Counted from the first letter of the stretch, positions 3,294 through 52,200 are shown. The stretch: 64,000 nt of DNA from Desulfomonilia bacterium (GCA_963664325.2 CAXXDQ010000003.1:160001-224000); one strand, 5' to 3'. A program made the numbers and translations. Notes: a model not told the origin generated them from the letters alone.

Positions 3294-3905
3294 CTACCCG
3301 AACAGTTTGCCTGCAATCTTCGCCACATGACGGCCCTGATACTTTGCTCCTGCAAGTTCGTTCTGGCTGGGCTGGCGTTCTCCTGACGGGCCGGCTATGG
3401 TTGATGCCCCGTAAGGAGAACAACCGGTGATTTCGTCGATGCGCATCTGGGCGTCAAAAGAATACGGCAGGCCTACAATGACCATTCCATGGTGCAGGAG
3501 CGTGGTATGGACGCTCAGGATTGTTGATTCCTGGCCTCCGTGCTGCGTGGCGCTGCTGGTAAATACGCTGCCTACTTTTCCCACGAGGGCTCCCTTGGCC
3601 CAAAGCCCGCCAGTTGCATCGAGGAACTGCCTCATCTGGCCGCACATATTGCCAAAGCGGGTGGGTGTGCCGAAGATTATCGCATCCGCCTGGACAAGGT
3701 CTTCAACCCTGGCTACAGGGATATGGGCGAAGGCCTTCCGGGCTTCAAGCGCCCCCATCTTTTTCAGTACATCATCACCGAGGGTTTCCGGTACCCGGTG
3801 TAGTATGGCCCCGGCGCCGTCAACTTCCCGCACGCCTTCAGCCACGGCCTCGGCCATCTTATAGATATGGCCGTACATGGAATAAAAAAGCACAAGAACT
3901 TTCAT
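3294..3905 (-). CDS. wrbA: NAD(P)H:quinone oxidoreductase WrbA
   Basis: [22 protein letters not shown] and SPYGA motifs. Confidence 0.95.
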
Positions 3906-21506: not shown

Positions 21507-21556
21507 AACTGTGTTTGTATATCAAATCGGTTCGATTAAAACTTAAACGGCGACAG

Positions 21557-22652
21557 ATGAAGACAATTTTAGAAAATAAATCTATCCCCTGTTTAGATAT
21601 TCCTGAAGACGTTTTAAAACTTTTATCCGTTGTGGATGAAGTTATCTGGATTATGTCAAGCAGTGGAAAAGAATTATATTATGTGAATCCAGCCTTTGAA
21701 CGCCTGTATGGAAAAGAAGTTTCCGGGTTCTATGACAATCCTGATCTCTGGCTTCTTTCCGTTCATCCGGATGACAGGCGTATTGCCGAAGAAAGCATTG
21801 AAGAGCTTCTGTCGTTTCGATATTCAAAGGCGGAATACCGCATCATAAGGCCCGACGGAACCGACAGATGGATCCTTGACAAGAAGCATATCATAAAAAA
21901 AAGGAGAAGATTGCGTGCCTCTGATAGGCTGTATCCTACGCGACATCACAGAGCAGAAGATGGCGAACGACAAGCTTAAGGAACTTCATGAGGACTTGCG
22001 TTCCCAGACATTCAATATGAGCCTGGCCGGGGAGAAGGAGAGAAGGCGGATTGCGACGGAACTTCATGACAATGTGAGCCAGAACCTGGCTTACTGTAAA
22101 ATAAAACTCAAAGAGATCGAAAAAGACGGCAATTATTCCGGGTTGGCCGGTGAACTGAACGAGATCAATATATTGCTGACTGAGGCCATAAAAAATATCA
22201 GGTCACAGACATTCGAGCTCAGCCCCCCCCTTCTTTATGACCTCGGGCTGGAACCGGCAATCGATTGGCTTGGAGAGAATATAATTGCAAAAAGGGGAAT
22301 GAATTTCCGGCTGGACAGTGATGAATATCAAAAACCGATAAGCAATGAATTGAGAGTGCTTTTATTCCAGATCGTTCGGGAACTTCTGAACAATATCGCC
22401 AAACATTCCCAGGCCAGGGAAGTCATGGTATTTATCAGGTATGCAACGGACACTGTCATGATAAGCGTTCAGGATAACGGCATAGGTTTTGAAGAGTCTG
22501 AAATGTCAACAGGGCATCAGCAAAGTCATGGTTATGTAAGCATCAGGGAGCGGCTGAATCATATAGGCGGATTTTTCAGCATTAAATCCAAACAGGGTGC
22601 GGGAACAAAGGTAAACATCGTTGTTCCCATTAATGAGAGGGGAATGATATGA
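21557..22652 (+). pseudogene. Cytoplasmic PAS + HisKA_3 sensor kinase split by a +1 frameshift in an A8 run
   Basis: Removing one A at 21895-21902 joins the PAS half (VHPDDR...YRIIRPDG) through KKGEDCVPLIGCILRDITE to ERRRIATELHD...QDNGIGF. Confidence 0.85.
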
Positions 22653-29197: not shown

Positions 29198-29228
29198 CTT
29201 TCAGCAAAACAATAAAGTAATAAATGTA

Positions 29229-29267
29229 GTAAGGTATTTGGAGGCTCATAATAAGGATTACCCTGAT
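29229..29267 (+). promoter_or_regulatory. Island operator copy 9 (upstream of EF-hand gene)
   Basis: GTAAGGTATTTGGAGGCTCATA-ATAAGG-ATTAC-CCTGAT. Confidence 0.8.
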
Positions 29268-29313
29268 ATAAAAAAAGATATATTAAAACTATCTATCGCT
29301 AAGGAGGTAACAT

Positions 29314-29793
29314 ATGAAAAATCAAATTATAACCGGACTCTGTTTCATTTTCGTTATACTGCTTACTGTCCCTTCATTCGCGGCAACCCAAAAAATACAG
29401 CCTGATATTCCGCAGTCGGTATTTCAAGCACTGAAATCTCAAAATATAAGCGCATCCGAGTTAAAGGCGCAAAGGCAGAGCATATTCGACAAGATGGATG
29501 TGGAGAAGGACGGCAAAATCAGCAAAGACGAATTCATGCTTTATGAGAAGAGTATTTTCGCGGGGCTTGACAAGAAGAAAGATGATGCCCTTACTCCCGA
29601 TGAGGTAAATAAAACCTGCCAGGTTTACTTTGTATGCCTTGATGCGAACAAGGACAACAAGGTCACGCTGCAGGAATTTGAGGCCAAGCTGGATGAGACG
29701 TTCAAGCTTATGGACGGAAAGGACAAGGACGGTTATATTACCAGTAAAGAATATTTCTCTTACTGGAAGGCCAAGGATAAGGCCGACAGATAA
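29314..29793 (+). CDS. Exported EF-hand calcium-binding protein
   Basis: Signal peptide; four EF-hand-like loops (DVEKDGKISKDE, DKKKDDALTPDE, DANKDNKVTLQE, DGKDKDGYITSKE); TAAGGAGG RBS. Confidence 0.88.
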   Translation: MKNQIITGLCFIFVILLTVPSFAATQKIQPDIPQSVFQALKSQNISASELKAQRQSIFDKMDVEKDGKISKDEFMLYEKSIFAGLDKKKDDALTPDEVNKTCQVYFVCLDANKDNKVTLQEFEAKLDETFKLMDGKDKDGYITSKEYFSYWKAKDKADR

Positions 29794-29815
29794 AGCTTAT
29801 ACAACAGGCTTAAAT

Positions 29816-31147
29816 TCACATCTTCTGCCGCAGTTCCCTTGCTGCATGGTGCACGGCGTCCACAGAACTGCTGAAAGGCGGCGAATAGGCGAAGTCCAGA
29901 TAGGCGATCTCTTCAATATTAAGGCGGGACCATAAGGCCACCGCCAGTGCGTTGATCCTGGATACGGCGCCTGTTTCGCCTATGGCCTGGGCGCCCAGAA
30001 GTTTTCCTGTGGATCTGTCGGCGACAAGTTTCAAGCCAATTTTTTTCTTTCCCATCAGGCTTCCGACAGCGTTGCCCCAATAGATATGGCTGACGGGGTG
30101 GAACCCGGCAGAGCCGGCCTCATGTTCATCAATTCCAGTGGCTGCGGCCTCCAGGTTGAAAACTTTAAAAGACTGTGACCCGACAACACCGGGGAAAATA
30201 TCAGGCATGCCGGCGATATTATGTCCGGCGACCCGGCCTTGTTTATTGGCGATATCGGACAGTGGGATATGCACCCACTGACTGGTGACCCTGTTAAAGA
30301 CCTCGCAGCAGTCTCCTATGGCGAAAACATCTTTATCGGAAGTCGTCTGGGAAAAATCAACGGCAATCGCCCCTGTCCGGCCTATCCTGATACCTGCATC
30401 CATCGCAAGACGCACATCCGGCCTTATTCCGACCGCTAGAAGTATCATGTCAGAATCCAGCGTCATATGTTTTGTTGCCAGGCGCAGAGGGGTGAGGGAG
30501 CCTTTCTCAATAGATATTACATCCTGATTCGGATAATAATCCACTCCGTTTTTATCGAGTTCCTCAAGGATGGTTTTTGACAACCCGGGGTCCCAGCGCA
30601 TTACGGGAAATTCAACCTGGTTAACCATCTGAACCTTGATGCCCAGACCCTGCAGGGCTTCGCTCATTTCCATGGCTATGAATCCAGCACCGACAATTAC
30701 GGCCTTCCTGCAGGATTTTTCTTTAATGTATTGCTTGATTCTGAGAGCGTCAGCTATGTTTTTCAGTGAAAAAACACCTTCAAGGTCCTCTCCCTCAATG
30801 CCCGGGCTTATAAGCCTTGAGCCTGTGGCCATGACAAGGGTGTCATACGGGACTCTTGAACCGTCCGACAGCCGGACTGTTTTATTATCCCTGTCCAGAG
30901 ACTCTGCCCGTGTTTTCAGAAGAACATTGATTCCGGTTTCCCTGAATCTTTCAAGGGCATTGCCGATGATTTTATCCTCTCCTTTGATTACATCACCGAT
31001 GTAATAAGGGAGAGGTCAGGTTGAAGGGGCTATATATCCGCCTGATTCGATAACAGTGATGTTTGCTTCAGGATCGGTCCGTTTGACTTCGGCAGCTGCA
31101 GTGGGACCTGAAGTTCCACCGCCTATTATGACAAGATTACGGGTCAT
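29816..31147 (-). CDS. Selenocysteine-containing NADH oxidase / CoA-disulfide reductase family flavoprotein (443 aa, Sec44)
   Basis: ATG 31147 with AAGGAGG RBS; MTRNLVIIGGGTSG...YIAPST-UGA-PLPYYIG continues in frame into the 338-aa track ORF; C-terminal LDFAYSPPFS. Confidence 0.88.
30976..31015 (-). promoter_or_regulatory. Bacterial SECIS-like hairpin immediately 3' of the in-frame UGA
   Basis: mRNA CCUCUCC-CUU-AUUACAUC-GGU-GAUGUAAU-CAAA-GGAGAGG: 7-bp and 8-bp perfect stems with a G-containing apical loop. Confidence 0.8.
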
Positions 31148-31229
31148 GAAATATCCTCCTTTCTCAACCCTTGAGCAGGTTCAAAATATAATATCCAGAT
31201 GGACGGGAGAATGAGCTGTTATATGGGTA

Positions 31230-31439
31230 TCAGCGCCTTGAGCCTGCGTTTGCGGCCGGCCGGTTTTTTTTAGGCTTTGATTTGAATATGAATAGAAAAT
31301 CATTTTCTTCCTTGCCCGCCGGATTATGATTTGTTGATTGTCCGGATGGGGTATTCAGGCGGCATTCCCTGAATACTTTGTTCATTCTTTCCTGAAGAAC
31401 CAGTAATTCCCTGATTTGAGATTTCACGTTCCTTGCCAT
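31230..31439 (-). CDS. Small hypothetical protein with an Hsp20-like N-terminal segment
   Basis: AAGGAGG RBS; RELLVLQERMNKVF; no alpha-crystallin domain. Confidence 0.55.
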   Translation of the reverse strand: MARNVKSQIRELLVLQERMNKVFRECRLNTPSGQSTNHNPAGKEENDFLFIFKSKPKKNRPAANAGSRR

Positions 31440-31459
31440 GAAGTCAAACCTCCTTCCGC

Positions 31460-32317
31460 TTAAGGCATCATAAGGTCTATGTTTTCCTCAAGCGCGTTTT
31501 TGAATTTCTCTTTCACGCTGTTTTCTATCTGGCGTACCCTTTCTTTCGAGATGGTATATTTCTGTCCCAGATCCATAAGGGTTTTAGGGTTGTCAGTCAT
31601 AATGCGCTGCTGCATAATATCCTGCTCGCGCAAAGTAAGCCCGTTAAGGGCAGAGCCGATCTTTTCTTTCATGAAACTGGTGCGCTGGGATTCCATAACC
31701 TGATCTTCAGGGTTGGATCTTGTGTCTGCAAGGATATCCATGAAGCTGGTTTCGGAACTGGGGTTTATCGGACAATCGAGCGAGAAGCAGCTTCCGGAAA
31801 GCCGGATTATTATCTCCTCGATATGCTTTGGACTTGCATTGAATCTTGCTGATAATGCATTTGACTGGTCGGTAATGCTCTCTTCGGAAACAAATTCTTC
31901 GGAGAGAGCCTGGTTCAGCTTGTAAAAAAGTCTCTTCTGAAGTTTTGTCGTTCCTATCTTAACAGGCGAGAAAAACCTCAGTATGTAGTCATTTATCGCG
32001 GCCTTGATCCACCATACGGCATAGGTCATCAGCCTGTAACCCCTGTAGGGGTCAAATTTGTTGATCGCCGTAATCAATCCTATGGCGCCTTCCTGAAAGA
32101 TATCCTCAATCGGCAGCTTGTATCCTGAATATTCGAGAGCAATGTAGACGACGTTTTTAAAGTTGGCGTTTGCAAGGCTCTGAGCGGCTTCAATGTCACC
32201 CTGTTCTATAAAGCGTGTTGCAAGTGCGAATTCCTCGTCCCTTCCTAGCGACGGAATGCCTTCGAACCTGTCGAGGAGCTCTGCAACCGGGTTATTGTGT
32301 AGGCTTTTATTGTTCAT
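31460..32317 (-). CDS. rpoH: RNA polymerase sigma-32 family factor
   Basis: QEGAIGL, KFDP-RG-RL-TYAVWWI, RpoH-box-like VKIGTTKLQKRLFYKL and SKERVRQIE motifs. Confidence 0.88.
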   Translation of the reverse strand: MNNKSLHNNPVAELLDRFEGIPSLGRDEEFALATRFIEQGDIEAAQSLANANFKNVVYIALEYSGYKLPIEDIFQEGAIGLITAINKFDPYRGYRLMTYAVWWIKAAINDYILRFFSPVKIGTTKLQKRLFYKLNQALSEEFVSEESITDQSNALSARFNASPKHIEEIIIRLSGSCFSLDCPINPSSETSFMDILADTRSNPEDQVMESQRTSFMKEKIGSALNGLTLREQDIMQQRIMTDNPKTLMDLGQKYTISKERVRQIENSVKEKFKNALEENIDLMMP

Positions 32318-32322
32318 TTTAT

Positions 32323-32832
32323 TTATTTTTTATTCAGCATGGTCATGATTTCACGCATGAATGAAGGCAGATCCGAGGGCCCCCGTGAAGTTATAAGATT
32401 TCTGTCCACCACGACCTCGCGGTCTTCGAAAAATGCACCGGCTTCTTTCAATTCCACACCTACGGATCTGTATGAAGTGGCATGCCATCCCTTCAGCAGT
32501 CCTGCACTTATCAGGACCTGAGGTCCGTGACATATTGCTGCTACCGGCTTGCCTGATTCGAAAAAACTGCGGGCAATCTCAAGCGCCTTTGTGTCCTTTC
32601 TCACTTTTTCCGGGGCTTTGCCGCCTGGAATGACAAGAATGGCGTATTCTCCGGCGTTTATTTCACCGAAGGCCCTGTCGGCATCCACCTTGTAACCATG
32701 GATCCCTTTTATAGGACCCTTTGCCTGTGCCGCCACATCCACGTCTATGGCGGCTTCCTTCAGCCTGTAATATGGAACCAGCAGTTCAAGGTCTTCAAAA
32801 TTGTCCGAGCTTATGATCAATGCCTTCATCAT
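32323..32832 (-). CDS. PfpI/DJ-1 family protein
   Basis: FEDLE, IPGG, AAICHGP and LITSRGPSDL motifs. Confidence 0.93.
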   Translation of the reverse strand: MMKALIISSDNFEDLELLVPYYRLKEAAIDVDVAAQAKGPIKGIHGYKVDADRAFGEINAGEYAILVIPGGKAPEKVRKDTKALEIARSFFESGKPVAAICHGPQVLISAGLLKGWHATSYRSVGVELKEAGAFFEDREVVVDRNLITSRGPSDLPSFMREIMTMLNKK

Positions 32833-32886
32833 GTCCCTCCGTAAATCCGGGGATTATTCAGTCTTGAAGTGAAAGATACAGTCCGG

Positions 32887-33507
32887 TCACTGTTTCAGGA
32901 GATCTTCAAGCCTTTTGTTCACTTCCGGCCAGTTGACTATGTTCCAGAAAGACTCTATGAACTTTGCCCTGTCGTTTTTATAGTCGACGTAATATGCATG
33001 CTCCCATACATCCAGCACCATAAGTATCCTGAACATCGGATAAACATTGATGTTATGCTTTTCCACCTGCATTATCACCGGCCTGTTGGTGAGTCTGCAA
33101 AAGGTCAGTGCAGCCCATCCCGAACCCTCGGTGCTTGATGCCGTCAGGGAGAATATCTTTTTAAACCTGTCGAACGAGCCGTACTCTTCATCTATGACCT
33201 TCGCTATTGTCCCTGACGGAATTCCGCCCCCGGGCCCGCCTGCGGGTGCCAGATTTTTCCAGAACAGGGAATGAAGCAGGTGTCCGCCTATATGGAATGA
33301 AAGCTCTTTGAAAGTGGCTTTCGCGTCAAAATCGAGGCTTTCCGTCCTTGCCTTGTCCATTTTTTCGAAAATGGCGTTTGCTCCGTTTACATATGCGGCA
33401 TGGTGTTTGTCATGATGAAGCCTGAGAAGTTCCTCCGATATATAAGGTTGAAGAGCGTTATAACCGTAAGTGAGATCCGGTAGTACATACTGTTTTTTTG
33501 CTTCCAT
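32887..33507 (-). CDS. sod: Fe/Mn superoxide dismutase
   Basis: LHHDKHH, HSLFW, GSGW and DVWEHAYY motifs. Confidence 0.96.
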
Positions 33508-33623
33508 GATTTTTGTCTCCTTTTCATTTTTTGTTTTACCCTTTGACGGCGGAGCTGAATTCCATTTTTTAAAATTGTTTCAGATCCTGTTATGAGTTAT
33601 CAGCCGGCACCGGATTTTCCTCA

Positions 33624-33662
33624 ATCAGGCGAAACCTTATTTTCTGTTGCGAAATACCTGAT
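33624..33662 (-). promoter_or_regulatory. Island operator copy 10 (upstream of sod-pfpI-rpoH operon)
   Basis: Minus strand: ATCAGGTATTTCGCAACAGAAA-ATAAGG-TTTCG-CCTGAT-TG. Confidence 0.8.
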
Positions 33663-33801
33663 AATCAAGGGGATATAAGAGCTTGCAATAAAGGGCAGGT
33701 TTTCAGTGCTTTTTCCGCCTGCGGAGAACTGTAAATCCGCTTTTGCCGACTTCGTTTCAAAGGCAGTTACTTTTTTATTTTAAAAAGATTAAGGTAAAAG
33801 A

Positions 33802-34941
33802 ATGTTCACCTATCAGAAGACGAACCGGTATTTTGCCCAGATTGCGGACGGCATGGAGGAACTGGGCAAGGAGGAGCTTGCCTCGCTCGGGGCAGAGGAT
33901 ATCAACGTTGTCTTTCGCGGGTTGTTCCTGACGGCCGACAGGGAAGCCCTTTACCGCATCAATTACATGACCAGGCTGTGTACGCGCATACTTGCGCCGC
34001 TCATCACCTTTGACTGCCACAGCACGAAGTACCTGTACAGGACCGCGCAGGGCATCGACTGGCCGGCGCTCTTTTCCGTTAACCAGACATTCTGCATCTC
34101 GGCGAATCTCACTAACAGCAAGATAAGACATTCCCAGTATGCATCGCTTTGCCTGAAGGATGCGATAGTCGACCAGTTCAGGGAGCGTTTTGAAATGAGG
34201 CCAGATGTGGAACGGATAAACCCGGACATCCATATCAACCTGCACATAGACAGCAACAAGGCCACCATTTATCTGGATACATCGGGAGGCTCGCTGCACA
34301 GGCGGGGATACAGGAATGAGGCGGTTGAAGCGCCCATGCAGGAGAACCTGGCCGCGGCAATTATCAAGCTGTCGGGCTGGGACGGCCGGACGCCTTTATA
34401 TGACCCGATGTGCGGTTCAGGCACATTGCTTTTTGAGGCCTTCATGCACTGCTGCCATATCCCTGCCGGCTACCGGCGTGATAATTTCGGATTCACTTTT
34501 CTTCCCGATTTCGATAGTTCACTCTGGGGATCTGTCAAATCTGAAGCAGATGCAATGGTGAGAGAACTTCCCAAAGGACTGATAGGCGGGAGCGATATTC
34601 AGGAGCAGGCGGTTGCAGCGGCGCGGGCCAATGCGCGGAATCTCCCCGGGGGCAGGGCGATAACGTTTAAAAGGTCGGGGTTTATGGACCTTCCTGATCT
34701 CAATGAAACTACCATTGTGTGCAATCCGCCTTACGGCAGGCGTATGGGTACAAAGGATGAAATGGGTCTCATGATGAAGGATTTCGGGGATTTTCTCAAA
34801 CAGCGGTGTAAAGGCTCGACAGCCTACATATATTTCGGAAACAGAGAGCTCATAAAAAAAGTCGGGTTGAGGTCGGCATTCAAGATCCCGCTAAAAAACG
34901 GCCCACTCGACGGCAGGCTGGTGAAGTACGAGCTTTATTGA
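33802..34941 (+). CDS. THUMP-domain class I SAM-dependent RNA methyltransferase (RlmL-like)
   Basis: KDAIVDQF, SLHRRGYR, DPMCGSGT and NPPYG motifs. Confidence 0.92.
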   Translation: MFTYQKTNRYFAQIADGMEELGKEELASLGAEDINVVFRGLFLTADREALYRINYMTRLCTRILAPLITFDCHSTKYLYRTAQGIDWPALFSVNQTFCISANLTNSKIRHSQYASLCLKDAIVDQFRERFEMRPDVERINPDIHINLHIDSNKATIYLDTSGGSLHRRGYRNEAVEAPMQENLAAAIIKLSGWDGRTPLYDPMCGSGTLLFEAFMHCCHIPAGYRRDNFGFTFLPDFDSSLWGSVKSEADAMVRELPKGLIGGSDIQEQAVAAARANARNLPGGRAITFKRSGFMDLPDLNETTIVCNPPYGRRMGTKDEMGLMMKDFGDFLKQRCKGSTAYIYFGNRELIKKVGLRSAFKIPLKNGPLDGRLVKYELY

Positions 34942-51569: not shown

Positions 51570-52200
51570 ATGGAGCTTTTAAAGAAACTGTCCGAGTCAG
51601 TATGCAGCGGCGATATGGAGTCAGCTCTTAAGCTTACAGATCAGGCGCTGGCCGGAGGCGTTGGCGTATCCGACATACTGGAGCTGGGTCTGATCACCGC
51701 GATGTCAAAAGTGGGCGAAGACTTCAAGAACGGGGAAATTTTCGTGCCCGAGATGCTCATTGCGGCACGGGCCATGAACAAAGCCCTTGAAAGGCTGGAG
51801 CCTGAAATGGTCCGCGGGAACATCGAATCAAAGGGCACGTTTATCATCGGTGCCGTCAAGGGCGACCTGCATGACATAGGCAAAAACCTGGTGGGAATAA
51901 TGTTCAAGGGTGCCGGGTTCAGGGTCATTGACCTGGGCACCGATGTGAGCCTGGAAAAATTCATAAAGGCCGCGAAAGAATATAACCCCCGATATAATCG
52001 GCATCTCTTCACTCCTGACAACTACAATGCCCTACATGCAGACCATCATTGAAGGGTTGCGCGCCGAAGGCGTGGGCGCAAAAATTATTGTGGGCGGGGC
52101 GCCCCTCAACAGGGAATTCGCACTCAGCATCAATGCCGACGGTTACGCTGAAAATGCCGCGGAAGCGGCCGATCTCGGCAAAAGTCTGATGGGAATATGA
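51570..52200 (+). pseudogene. Methyltransferase corrinoid protein split by a +1 frameshift in a C5 run
   Basis: GDLHDIGKNLV; removing one C at 51986-51990 restores PDIIGISSLLTTTM...VGGAP...ADGYAENA to TGA 52198-52200 (209 aa). Confidence 0.88.

Follow-up and report, generated by a model that had tools for sequence, protein, structure and literature searches.

Whether a reading frame that is interrupted by TGA at the column of a catalytic cysteine can nevertheless encode a complete enzyme, and what such an enzyme would do, is the question raised by a flavoprotein gene in a stretch of 64,000 nucleotides from a Desulfomonilia bacterium, the whole of which is referred to here as the window. In the mechanical list of open reading frames (ORFs) the gene is present only as a 338-aa tail (30832-29816). 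A sequence-only reading had proposed that this ORF lacks its N-terminus, that the true frame stays open from an upstream ATG through an in-frame TGA into the listed tail, and that the product is an NADH oxidase/CoA-disulfide reductase with selenocysteine (Sec) at its single redox centre. The proposals on the missing N-terminus and on the frame are borne out and Sec at the redox centre is strongly supported, both by independent genomes and by constraint on the synonymous sites of the SECIS element; a hidden selenoprotein is therefore well supported, although of a kind that is already known.

The frame read from the ATG on the minus strand encodes 443 residues; its only internal stop is the TGA of codon 44, which lies in the context YIAPST-U-PLPYYIG, and it closes with a terminal TGA at 29818-29816 (Table 1). 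Besides codon 44 there is no further stop or frameshift in the 443 codons, and purine-rich SD-like stretches precede the equivalent start in 11/11 close loci. When the first 43 residues were used as the query, two separately called 43-aa peptides were found, P0122 (86% identity) and P0123 (84%), both of which end exactly before the Sec column, whilst the best match of the window protein, P0002, is 398 aa long and 84% identical; P0123 and P0002 come from contigs of equal length (9611) and would seem to be two halves of one gene. Comparison of the window with the 11 close loci gives a like pattern for codons 2-43 and codons 57-200, with pN of 0.30-0.41 and pS of about 0.70-0.87: conservation is equal before and after the TGA, and silent sites are saturated.

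Table 1. Features of the predicted selenoprotein gene and its surroundings, with positions counted from the first letter of the window
Feature	Position	Strand	Basis or remark
Full gene, 443 aa, predicted Sec at residue 44	29816..31147	-	Translation, 120 homologues, PDB matches over residues 2-440, AlphaFold model
SD-like AGGAGG	31155..31160	-	7 nt before the ATG at 31147
Codons 1-43, absent from the annotated ORF	31019..31147	-	FAD-binding GxGxxG strand-helix, CoA-cleft residues K22/R23
In-frame TGA, codon 44, predicted Sec on the catalytic Cys column	31016..31018	-	Homologue column
Bacterial SECIS hairpin (predicted)	30976..31015	-	Fold, spacing, upper stem invariant in 11/11 TGA genes
SECIS lower stem, 7 bp	31015-31009 with 30982-30976	-	Fold
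SECIS upper stem, 8 bp	31005-30998 with 30994-30987	-	Fold
SECIS GGU loop	30997-30995	-	18 nt after the UGA
312-bp intergenic gap, rpoH-like gene to selenoprotein gene	31148..31459		Sequence
RpoH-family sigma factor	32317-31460	-	NCBIfam; context only
PfpI/DJ-1	32832-32323	-	NCBIfam; context only
Fe/Mn superoxide dismutase	33507-32887	-	NCBIfam; context only

The best 120 protein matches consist of 88 full-length proteins, 31 proteins that start at column 46 and the window's own fragment, and every one of the 88 full-length proteins has Cys at the residue-44 column. At the level of genomes, for which the best 80 of 585 related loci were used (a sample and not a census), TGA at codon 44 is the sole internal stop in ten loci (L001-L008, L010 and L011) and the remaining 70 have Cys, so that Cys/UGA pairs do occur at this column; among the 11 of these loci that are at least 49% identical to the window protein, nine have TGA. 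The hosts named for the close loci are Syntrophaceae, Syntrophales, Smithella, Syntrophobacteraceae, an uncultured deltaproteobacterium and Acidobacteriota; selenoproteins are numerous in Syntrophus aciditrophicus (19) and in Syntrophobacter fumaroxidans (31; PMC1794560, Table 3; here and below, papers are cited for those parts of their text that were available). For the closest relatives, P0002, P0122, P0123 and P0004, the TGA and the gene neighbourhood are inferred. A methyltransferase gene beside the selenoprotein gene likewise has relatives whose source names indicate Deltaproteobacteria. Residue 44 aligns with the redox Cys of solved single-cysteine flavoproteins, in a column where the Shewanella C43S mutant 3nt6 has Ser, and the geometry of a Cys beside the FAD is confirmed by PMC9405070. 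Searches of the 64-kb window with ARAGORN for tRNAs and against Rfam at the gathering threshold gave no match, in 12 close loci ARAGORN found nothing but a tRNA-Met, none of selA, selB, selC and selD was seen in these 64 kb, and no other selenoprotein candidate was noticed within the window.

In the published rule for bacterial SECIS elements the loop has 3-9 nt, the upper stem 4-16 bp and the first two loop positions a G, with a spacing of 16-37 nt from the UGA and an MFE of at most -7.5 (PMC13188914, Fig. 2). The hairpin downstream of codon 44, which begins at the first base 3' of the UGA, agrees with these constraints when compared by hand, having a 3-nt GGU loop, a stem of 8 bp, a spacing of 18 nt and a folding energy of -19.6 kcal/mol. 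Its z-score is -3.7 for a segment of 59 nt (1/200 shuffles as stable) and -4.9 for one of 46 nt (0/200), and a loose form of the rule passes 10 of the 2609 TGA triplets in the window, that of codon 44 among them. An invariant 8-bp Watson-Crick stem with a GGN loop, the third base of which varies freely, is found in all 11 TGA genes (the window and the ten from the best 80 of 585 loci), as against an all-Watson-Crick stem in 1/14 Cys genes that code for the same peptide, YYIGDV; the Cys comparison set comprised 19 of the 70 Cys loci and included all 14 that code for this peptide. Furthermore, five synonymous codons are fixed in 11/11 TGA genes, a set that the codon usage of each gene would lead one to expect with a probability of 0.0002-0.012. 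The peptide PYYIGDVI is present in 31/31 truncated protein matches and in 9/88 Cys forms among the best 120, for which the Fisher p of 7e-21 is overstated because the rows are related.

Compensatory base changes were seen in 0/8 pairs across the 11 aligned TGA genes, as the SECIS lies in conserved codons, and since such changes are absent it is the synonymous fixation that supports the element. When G-U pairs are allowed, 5/14 of the YYIGDV Cys genes (again from the best 80 of 585 loci) also close the stem, and the peptide is therefore predisposed to form a hairpin. The two-stem hairpin with a GGU loop that had been described directly after the UGA is indeed present, but what is conserved in relatives is the upper stem and the GGN loop, the long lower stem showing no conservation across the 11 aligned TGA genes. 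A perfect stem in the face of saturated silent sites would indicate that the lineage of the window itself has maintained it, and probably still decodes Sec.

Trees were built with a quick method from columns beginning at residue 57, so that neither the Sec site nor the SECIS codons contributed, on 79 rows that remained after the protein matches had been thinned at 85% identity; they do not include the UGxP protein of Geobacter, and truncated proteins were treated as Sec forms by inference, both in the AU test below and in the counts of changes. In the 79-row tree the window falls within a clade of 65 rows (SH-aLRT 99) whose signatures are P45, in 99/99 rows having that column where the outgroup has G in 13/14 rows, W185 (129/130 rows) and W357 (128/130), together with the loss of the YY of the HAxYYPG motif, there being no Tyr among the four commonest residues at 363-365. 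The context APSTUPLPY, which had been called atypical, is so, but this is not peculiar to the gene: the P after U is a signature of the subfamily, and the AP(S/A)T stretch is common to two close relatives. Few of the best 150 representatives obtained by clustering at 50% lie in or near the clade (CG in 135, CP in two, one of which is the query), and no FSAC motif occurs within the first 80 residues of any of the 150. Departures of the window from the clade consensus at T12, P41, N63, S297 and V429 belong to a set of residues (T12, P41, G62-N63, S297 and V or M429) shared with P0002/P0123, P0122 and in part P0004, and therefore represent a trait of the lineage and not decay; judged by these residues, the window and these proteins (P0004 in part) are a derived sub-lineage.

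Sec and Cys are interleaved on the tree, with at least 10 changes on 79 rows and nine on 36 rows. The AU test, run under LG+G4 on the quick tree with columns from residue 57 and with 15 rows set against 22, rejected a single Sec clade (p 3e-6). The earliest-branching rows of the clade have TGA (L010) or are truncated (P0124), which suggests an ancestral Sec with repeated reversion to Cys, the change counts themselves giving no direction. Natural pairs of Sec and Cys sisters include L008 with L009 and P0056, L002 with P0011, and L004 with P0024. A second Sec form, with the motif U-S-E-P, is encoded at L011:719-2086 (+); it is 39% identical to the window protein, has an identical 8-bp SECIS stem and still contains a YPG motif, and its place in the tree is beside two Cys proteins outside the UPxP clade. 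Three proteins near the base of the clade, P0187, P0201 and P0124, are without an N-terminus (they start at profile position 75-76 or 46) and may be hidden Sec forms.

The sequence-only reading had also suggested that the gene is co-transcribed behind sod-pfpI-rpoH, and this is unsupported. Whilst the gaps within sod-pfpI-rpoH are 54 and 5 bp, 312 bp containing a strong hairpin separate rpoH from the selenoprotein gene, and relatives are found behind trxB-lgt instead. A conserved sod-pfpI-rpoH context was ruled out, as these genes do not stand beside relatives in the best 80 of 585 loci: neither sod nor pfpI is matched there, and rpoH has one 30% sigma-factor match, in L010, downstream and on the opposite strand. 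In contrast, trxB and lgt lie upstream in 7/12 close loci from the same 80 (L002, L003, L004, L006, L008, L009 and L020; five with TGA and two with Cys), several loci being short contigs, with terC often near (four loci) and a SpoU methylase in five; trxB was assigned by TIGR01292 above its cut-off. A scan of 29200-33900 for promoters and terminators was at the level of shuffles (6 vs 6.0 and 6 vs 5.3) and so gives no evidence for or against an operon.

Some further observations were made on these neighbourhoods. The hairpin in the 312-bp gap, of 16 pairs at 31344-31383, has a T tail on the plus strand only, where no gene is listed, and has no second copy within the window. In L006 the lgt gene is broken near 3690 into two frames. 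Between 3294 and 33507 the window holds genes for a flavodoxin-like protein, hemerythrin, a MerA-like flavoprotein, an old-yellow-enzyme homologue, NifS/NifU, DsrE2, a ferritin-like protein, PfpI and Sod, as well as MsrB and MsrA in Cys forms with apparent signal peptides. A convergent gene at 29314-29793 (+), which ends 22 bp from the stop of the selenoprotein gene, encodes a protein that looks secreted, has multiple EF hands and matches lanmodulin weakly (39 bits against a cut-off of 135). The DsrE2-like gene at 20598-18919 (-) ends in an in-frame TGA seven codons before the start of a cysteine desulfurase; no good hairpin follows (-6.7 kcal/mol) and this TGA is probably due to chance. Two other genes are apparently frameshifted, that of a PAS-like sensor kinase at 21515-22652 (+), in an A run, and that of a corrinoid (B12-binding) protein at 51570-52200 (+), in a C run.

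Could the TGA be something other than a Sec codon? Were it a true stop, whether in a pseudogene, through a sequencing error or in a Sec gene, acquired or left behind, whose host is unable to decode it, one might point to the two apparent homopolymer frameshifts near 21895 and 51990, from which it follows that the assembly is not error-free, to the position of the gene outside the trxB-lgt context, to the several residues that depart from the clade consensus and to the fact that no Sec machinery was seen in the 64 kb of the window. These residues are, however, common to P0122, P0123, P0002 and partly P0004, the closest relatives are broken at the same place (into the 43-aa P0122 and P0123 and the 398-aa P0002), and 10 other genomes among the best 80 of 585 loci share the TGA. 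With an otherwise uninterrupted frame, a SECIS that is intact in spite of saturated silent sites, and CTC at codon 46, so that no ready restart is at hand, a true stop seems very unlikely. Reading of UGA as Trp, Gly or Cys, by a changed code or by non-specific readthrough, would account for a frame that is uninterrupted before and after the TGA, but UGA is a normal stop in the source genome: it ends 23 of 59 hand-picked ORFs of the window, this gene included, and most of these have short junk extensions. The column is moreover Cys, and never Trp or Gly, in 88/88 proteins of the best 120 and in 70/70 non-TGA loci of the best 80 of 585, and selection for a SECIS-type hairpin is confined to genes with TGA, which leaves reassignment as the most improbable of these readings. 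It is thus very likely, judging from the sequences compared, that Sec44 is decoded and that the gene makes a full-length selenoprotein.

With Cys in place of Sec, 28 PDB sequences are matched from end to end at E values up to 1e-40, the best being 6pfz, 6ruz, 3iwa and 3cgb; the AlphaFold model, made with a 28-row alignment, has a pLDDT of 93 and a TM of 0.95 to 6pfz, and persulfide or CoA reductases take every one of the top 16 ranks among the Foldseek matches listed. The best NCBIfam models are those of CoA-disulfide reductases (CoADRs), TIGR03385, which ranks highest and covers residues 5-433 (351.4 bits, cut-off 578.8), and NF007123 (347.4 bits, cut-off 458), and the clade members L001 and P0005 likewise score below the CoADR cut-offs; the NADH oxidase (NOX) model NF046103 gives 229.7 bits against a cut-off of 600. 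The first 82 residues alone match CoA enzymes at 1e-14 to 1e-6 and NADH peroxidase (NPX) at 3e-4 or worse. With sequence and fold closer to CoA-binding disulfide/persulfide reductases than to NOX/NPX, the label of NADH oxidase is not supported, and the likeliest function is not that of a water-forming NADH oxidase.

Several residues bear on the choice of substrate and cofactor. S363-L364 align with the YY of the HAxYYPG motif in 3cgb, the region of S. aureus Tyr361, which has a catalytic role and for which mutant structures are among the Foldseek matches listed. R23, N301-K302 and Y421 are kept, the last being invariant in 130/130 clade rows and matching by numbering offset the active-site Tyr419 of the YxPP motif of S. 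aureus, a residue named in PMC1924876. The protein ends at residue 443 without a C-terminal rhodanese domain, which in Npsr/CoAPR enzymes is about 100 aa long (PMC7969121), and the match to 6pfz spans only residues 2-444 of its chain; the protein is therefore not an Npsr. Asn176 sits at the place of Glu183, the residue by which the Npsr of A. fulgidus selects NADH (PMC7969121), whilst His-Lys or His-Arg is found there in most members of the clade, so that use of NADPH or of both cofactors is plausible. Residues 62-65 lie in the segment lining the CoA cleft, a segment that sets substrate choice in a family where prediction of the substrate from sequence only is unreliable (PMC6026696). Since the YYPG tyrosines and the NADH-selecting Glu are lost and the wall of the CoA cleft is altered, substrate or cofactor preference may differ from that of a textbook CoADR. 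On balance, the main activity is probably CoA-linked S-S or persulfide reduction.

Two other functions for a selenoprotein were weighed against this one. It is possible, though unlikely, that the enzyme is mainly an NAD(P)H oxidase/peroxidase in which Sec44, by way of a selenenic acid, would reduce O2 or H2O2 to water as an oxygen defence beside sod: the fold and the single redox position are shared with NOX/NPX (TM 0.93), oxidative-stress genes abound in the window (sod, pfpI, msrA, msrB, ferritin-like, hemerythrin and flavodoxin-like), the wall of the CoA cleft is altered in the window's sub-lineage, and in the literature A. fulgidus Npsr has oxidase activity too and deletion of the CoADR of T. 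kodakarensis raises O2 sensitivity when sulfur is present (PMC7969121). Set against this are the score of 230 bits on the NOX model, the ranking of NPX/NOX below CoA enzymes by both sequence and fold, and a sod neighbourhood that is not conserved in the best 80 of 585 loci. NOX and NPX use an active-site His10, and residues 1-43 of the window protein contain no His; a literature search for the role of His10 in NOX/NPX found no paper. Marginally less likely again is a selenoprotein reductase with another substrate, which might be the disulfide of a low-molecular-weight thiol other than CoA, some selenium species or a protein with which it works in the thioredoxin system. The clade-wide changes near the active site (P45, W185, W357 and the loss of both YYPG tyrosines), the scores below the CoADR cut-offs in 3/3 clade members scanned and the linkage of a true thioredoxin reductase gene in 7/12 close loci would fit such an enzyme; however, the basic residues 22-23 and N301-K302 are kept as in the CoADR of B. 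anthracis, no gene for a substrate-specific partner is conserved, and the trxB-lgt linkage, which occurs in other bacteria, may be plain synteny.

The account we lean towards is that of a selenoprotein NAD(P)H-dependent reductase that would cycle a Sec44-CoA bond on CoA persulfide, polysulfide or disulfide. The ribosome would start at 31147, and the hairpin 3' of codon 44 would bind SelB-GTP-Sec-tRNA so that UGA is recoded as Sec, a mechanism that is established in bacteria and presumed to operate here. The product is modelled as a flavoprotein of the CoA-disulfide reductase/NADH peroxidase group, and is assumed from its homologues to be a homodimer. By analogy with Cys43-SSCoA, NAD(P)H would reduce FAD, which would then reduce the Sec44-Se-S-CoA mixed bond, and the selenolate would attack CoA persulfide, polysulfide or CoA disulfide with release of a thiol or H2S. 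The likely role of such an enzyme would be the redox upkeep of thiols and sulfane sulfur in an anaerobic deltaproteobacterium.

A more speculative extension, which we hold only tentatively, is that the U-P-x-P proteins form an unlisted and ancestrally Sec-using subfamily in Syntrophales and Acidobacteriota, without the YYPG tyrosines, usually behind trxB-lgt and with many reversions to Cys, in which a more acidic selenol might make the tyrosine helpers dispensable and the substrate or chemistry might be unlike that of CoA-disulfide reductase. As Y-I-G-D-V already encodes a near-palindrome, a SECIS could then be gained or lost by silent changes alone, and if this were true it would explain the recurrence of Sec at this site, including the U-S-E-P form of L011. 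The gene is mis-called in databases: 31 of the 120 best matches are cut so that they begin shortly behind the Sec codon, and residues 1-43 are entered as a peptide of their own. The existence of many natural Sec/Cys sister pairs together with one short invariant SECIS means that the gain from selenium in a flavin-coupled, single-centre reductase is directly testable, as is the ease with which Sec is gained and lost.

That a Sec-containing form of this family is not new, as the sequence-only reading had recognised, is clear from earlier work. Sec at the same site was reported in 2006 in Geobacter metallireducens (PMC1794560), one Sec NADH oxidase has been reported from an Olavius symbiont (PMC1976440), and the Sec form is listed as predicted in two reviews (PMC9312934 and PMC13188914), of which PMC13188914 gives its motif as UGxP and lists it as not experimentally verified, so that a form predicted since 2006 still awaits such verification. 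The printed examples of Sec forms read UGIP, UGLP and UALP (PMC1794560, PMC12013277 and PMC2398784). No UPxP motif was found in a literature search or in the available parts of the supplements to PMC12013277 and PMC2398784, and one BSepDB supplement (PMC13326102) gave, in its available part, no match for the family names; BSepDB or the supplements to PMC1976440 may hold the form. It would therefore appear that the U-P-x-P branch is unlisted, within a family that is already known.

Among enzymes of known structure, the NADH oxidases and peroxidases 1npx, 2bc0, 2cdu and 5er0 have the fold (TM 0.91-0.94) and the position of the single redox Cys in common with the window protein, but are 23-27% identical to it and score lower, and the window protein, unlike enzymes that use His10, has no His in residues 1-43. 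The CoADRs of B. anthracis (3cgb), T. thermophilus (6ruz), P. horikoshii (4fx9) and S. aureus (1yqz) are alike in length (~440 aa) and fold (TM 0.91-0.95) and share both the single redox residue at 43/44 and the C-terminal YxPP tyrosine; they are 26-34% identical, and the window protein differs from them in having Sec for Cys and S363-L364 for YY and in falling below both NCBIfam cut-offs. The Npsr/CoAPR enzymes of A. fulgidus (6pfz), S. loihica (3nta) and E. faecalis (8a56) have the same redox column, and 6pfz is the best match by both sequence and structure (E 7e-77, TM 0.95); unlike the window protein of 443 aa they carry a C-terminal rhodanese domain and have 550-590 aa, and Glu183 of Npsr is replaced by Asn176.

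The closest comparison is with the listed Sec CoADR/NADH oxidase (WP_011365774.1), which belongs to the same domain family and has Sec on the same catalytic column, encoded by an in-frame UGA. The listed Geobacter form, like that of the window, has a deltaproteobacterial host and Sec at the SxxxU position. By eye, the Geobacter protein keeps the RAGYFPG motif that is lost in the window's clade, and codes for a different peptide after Sec, and hence for a different SECIS. Whereas the listed form has U-G-x-P, the proteins described here have U-P-(L/M/T)-P (UPLP in the window), and because in the 2026 review (PMC13188914) forms that differ in Sec motif count as distinct subfamilies, we rate the U-P-x-P branch as a separate form of a known selenoprotein family.
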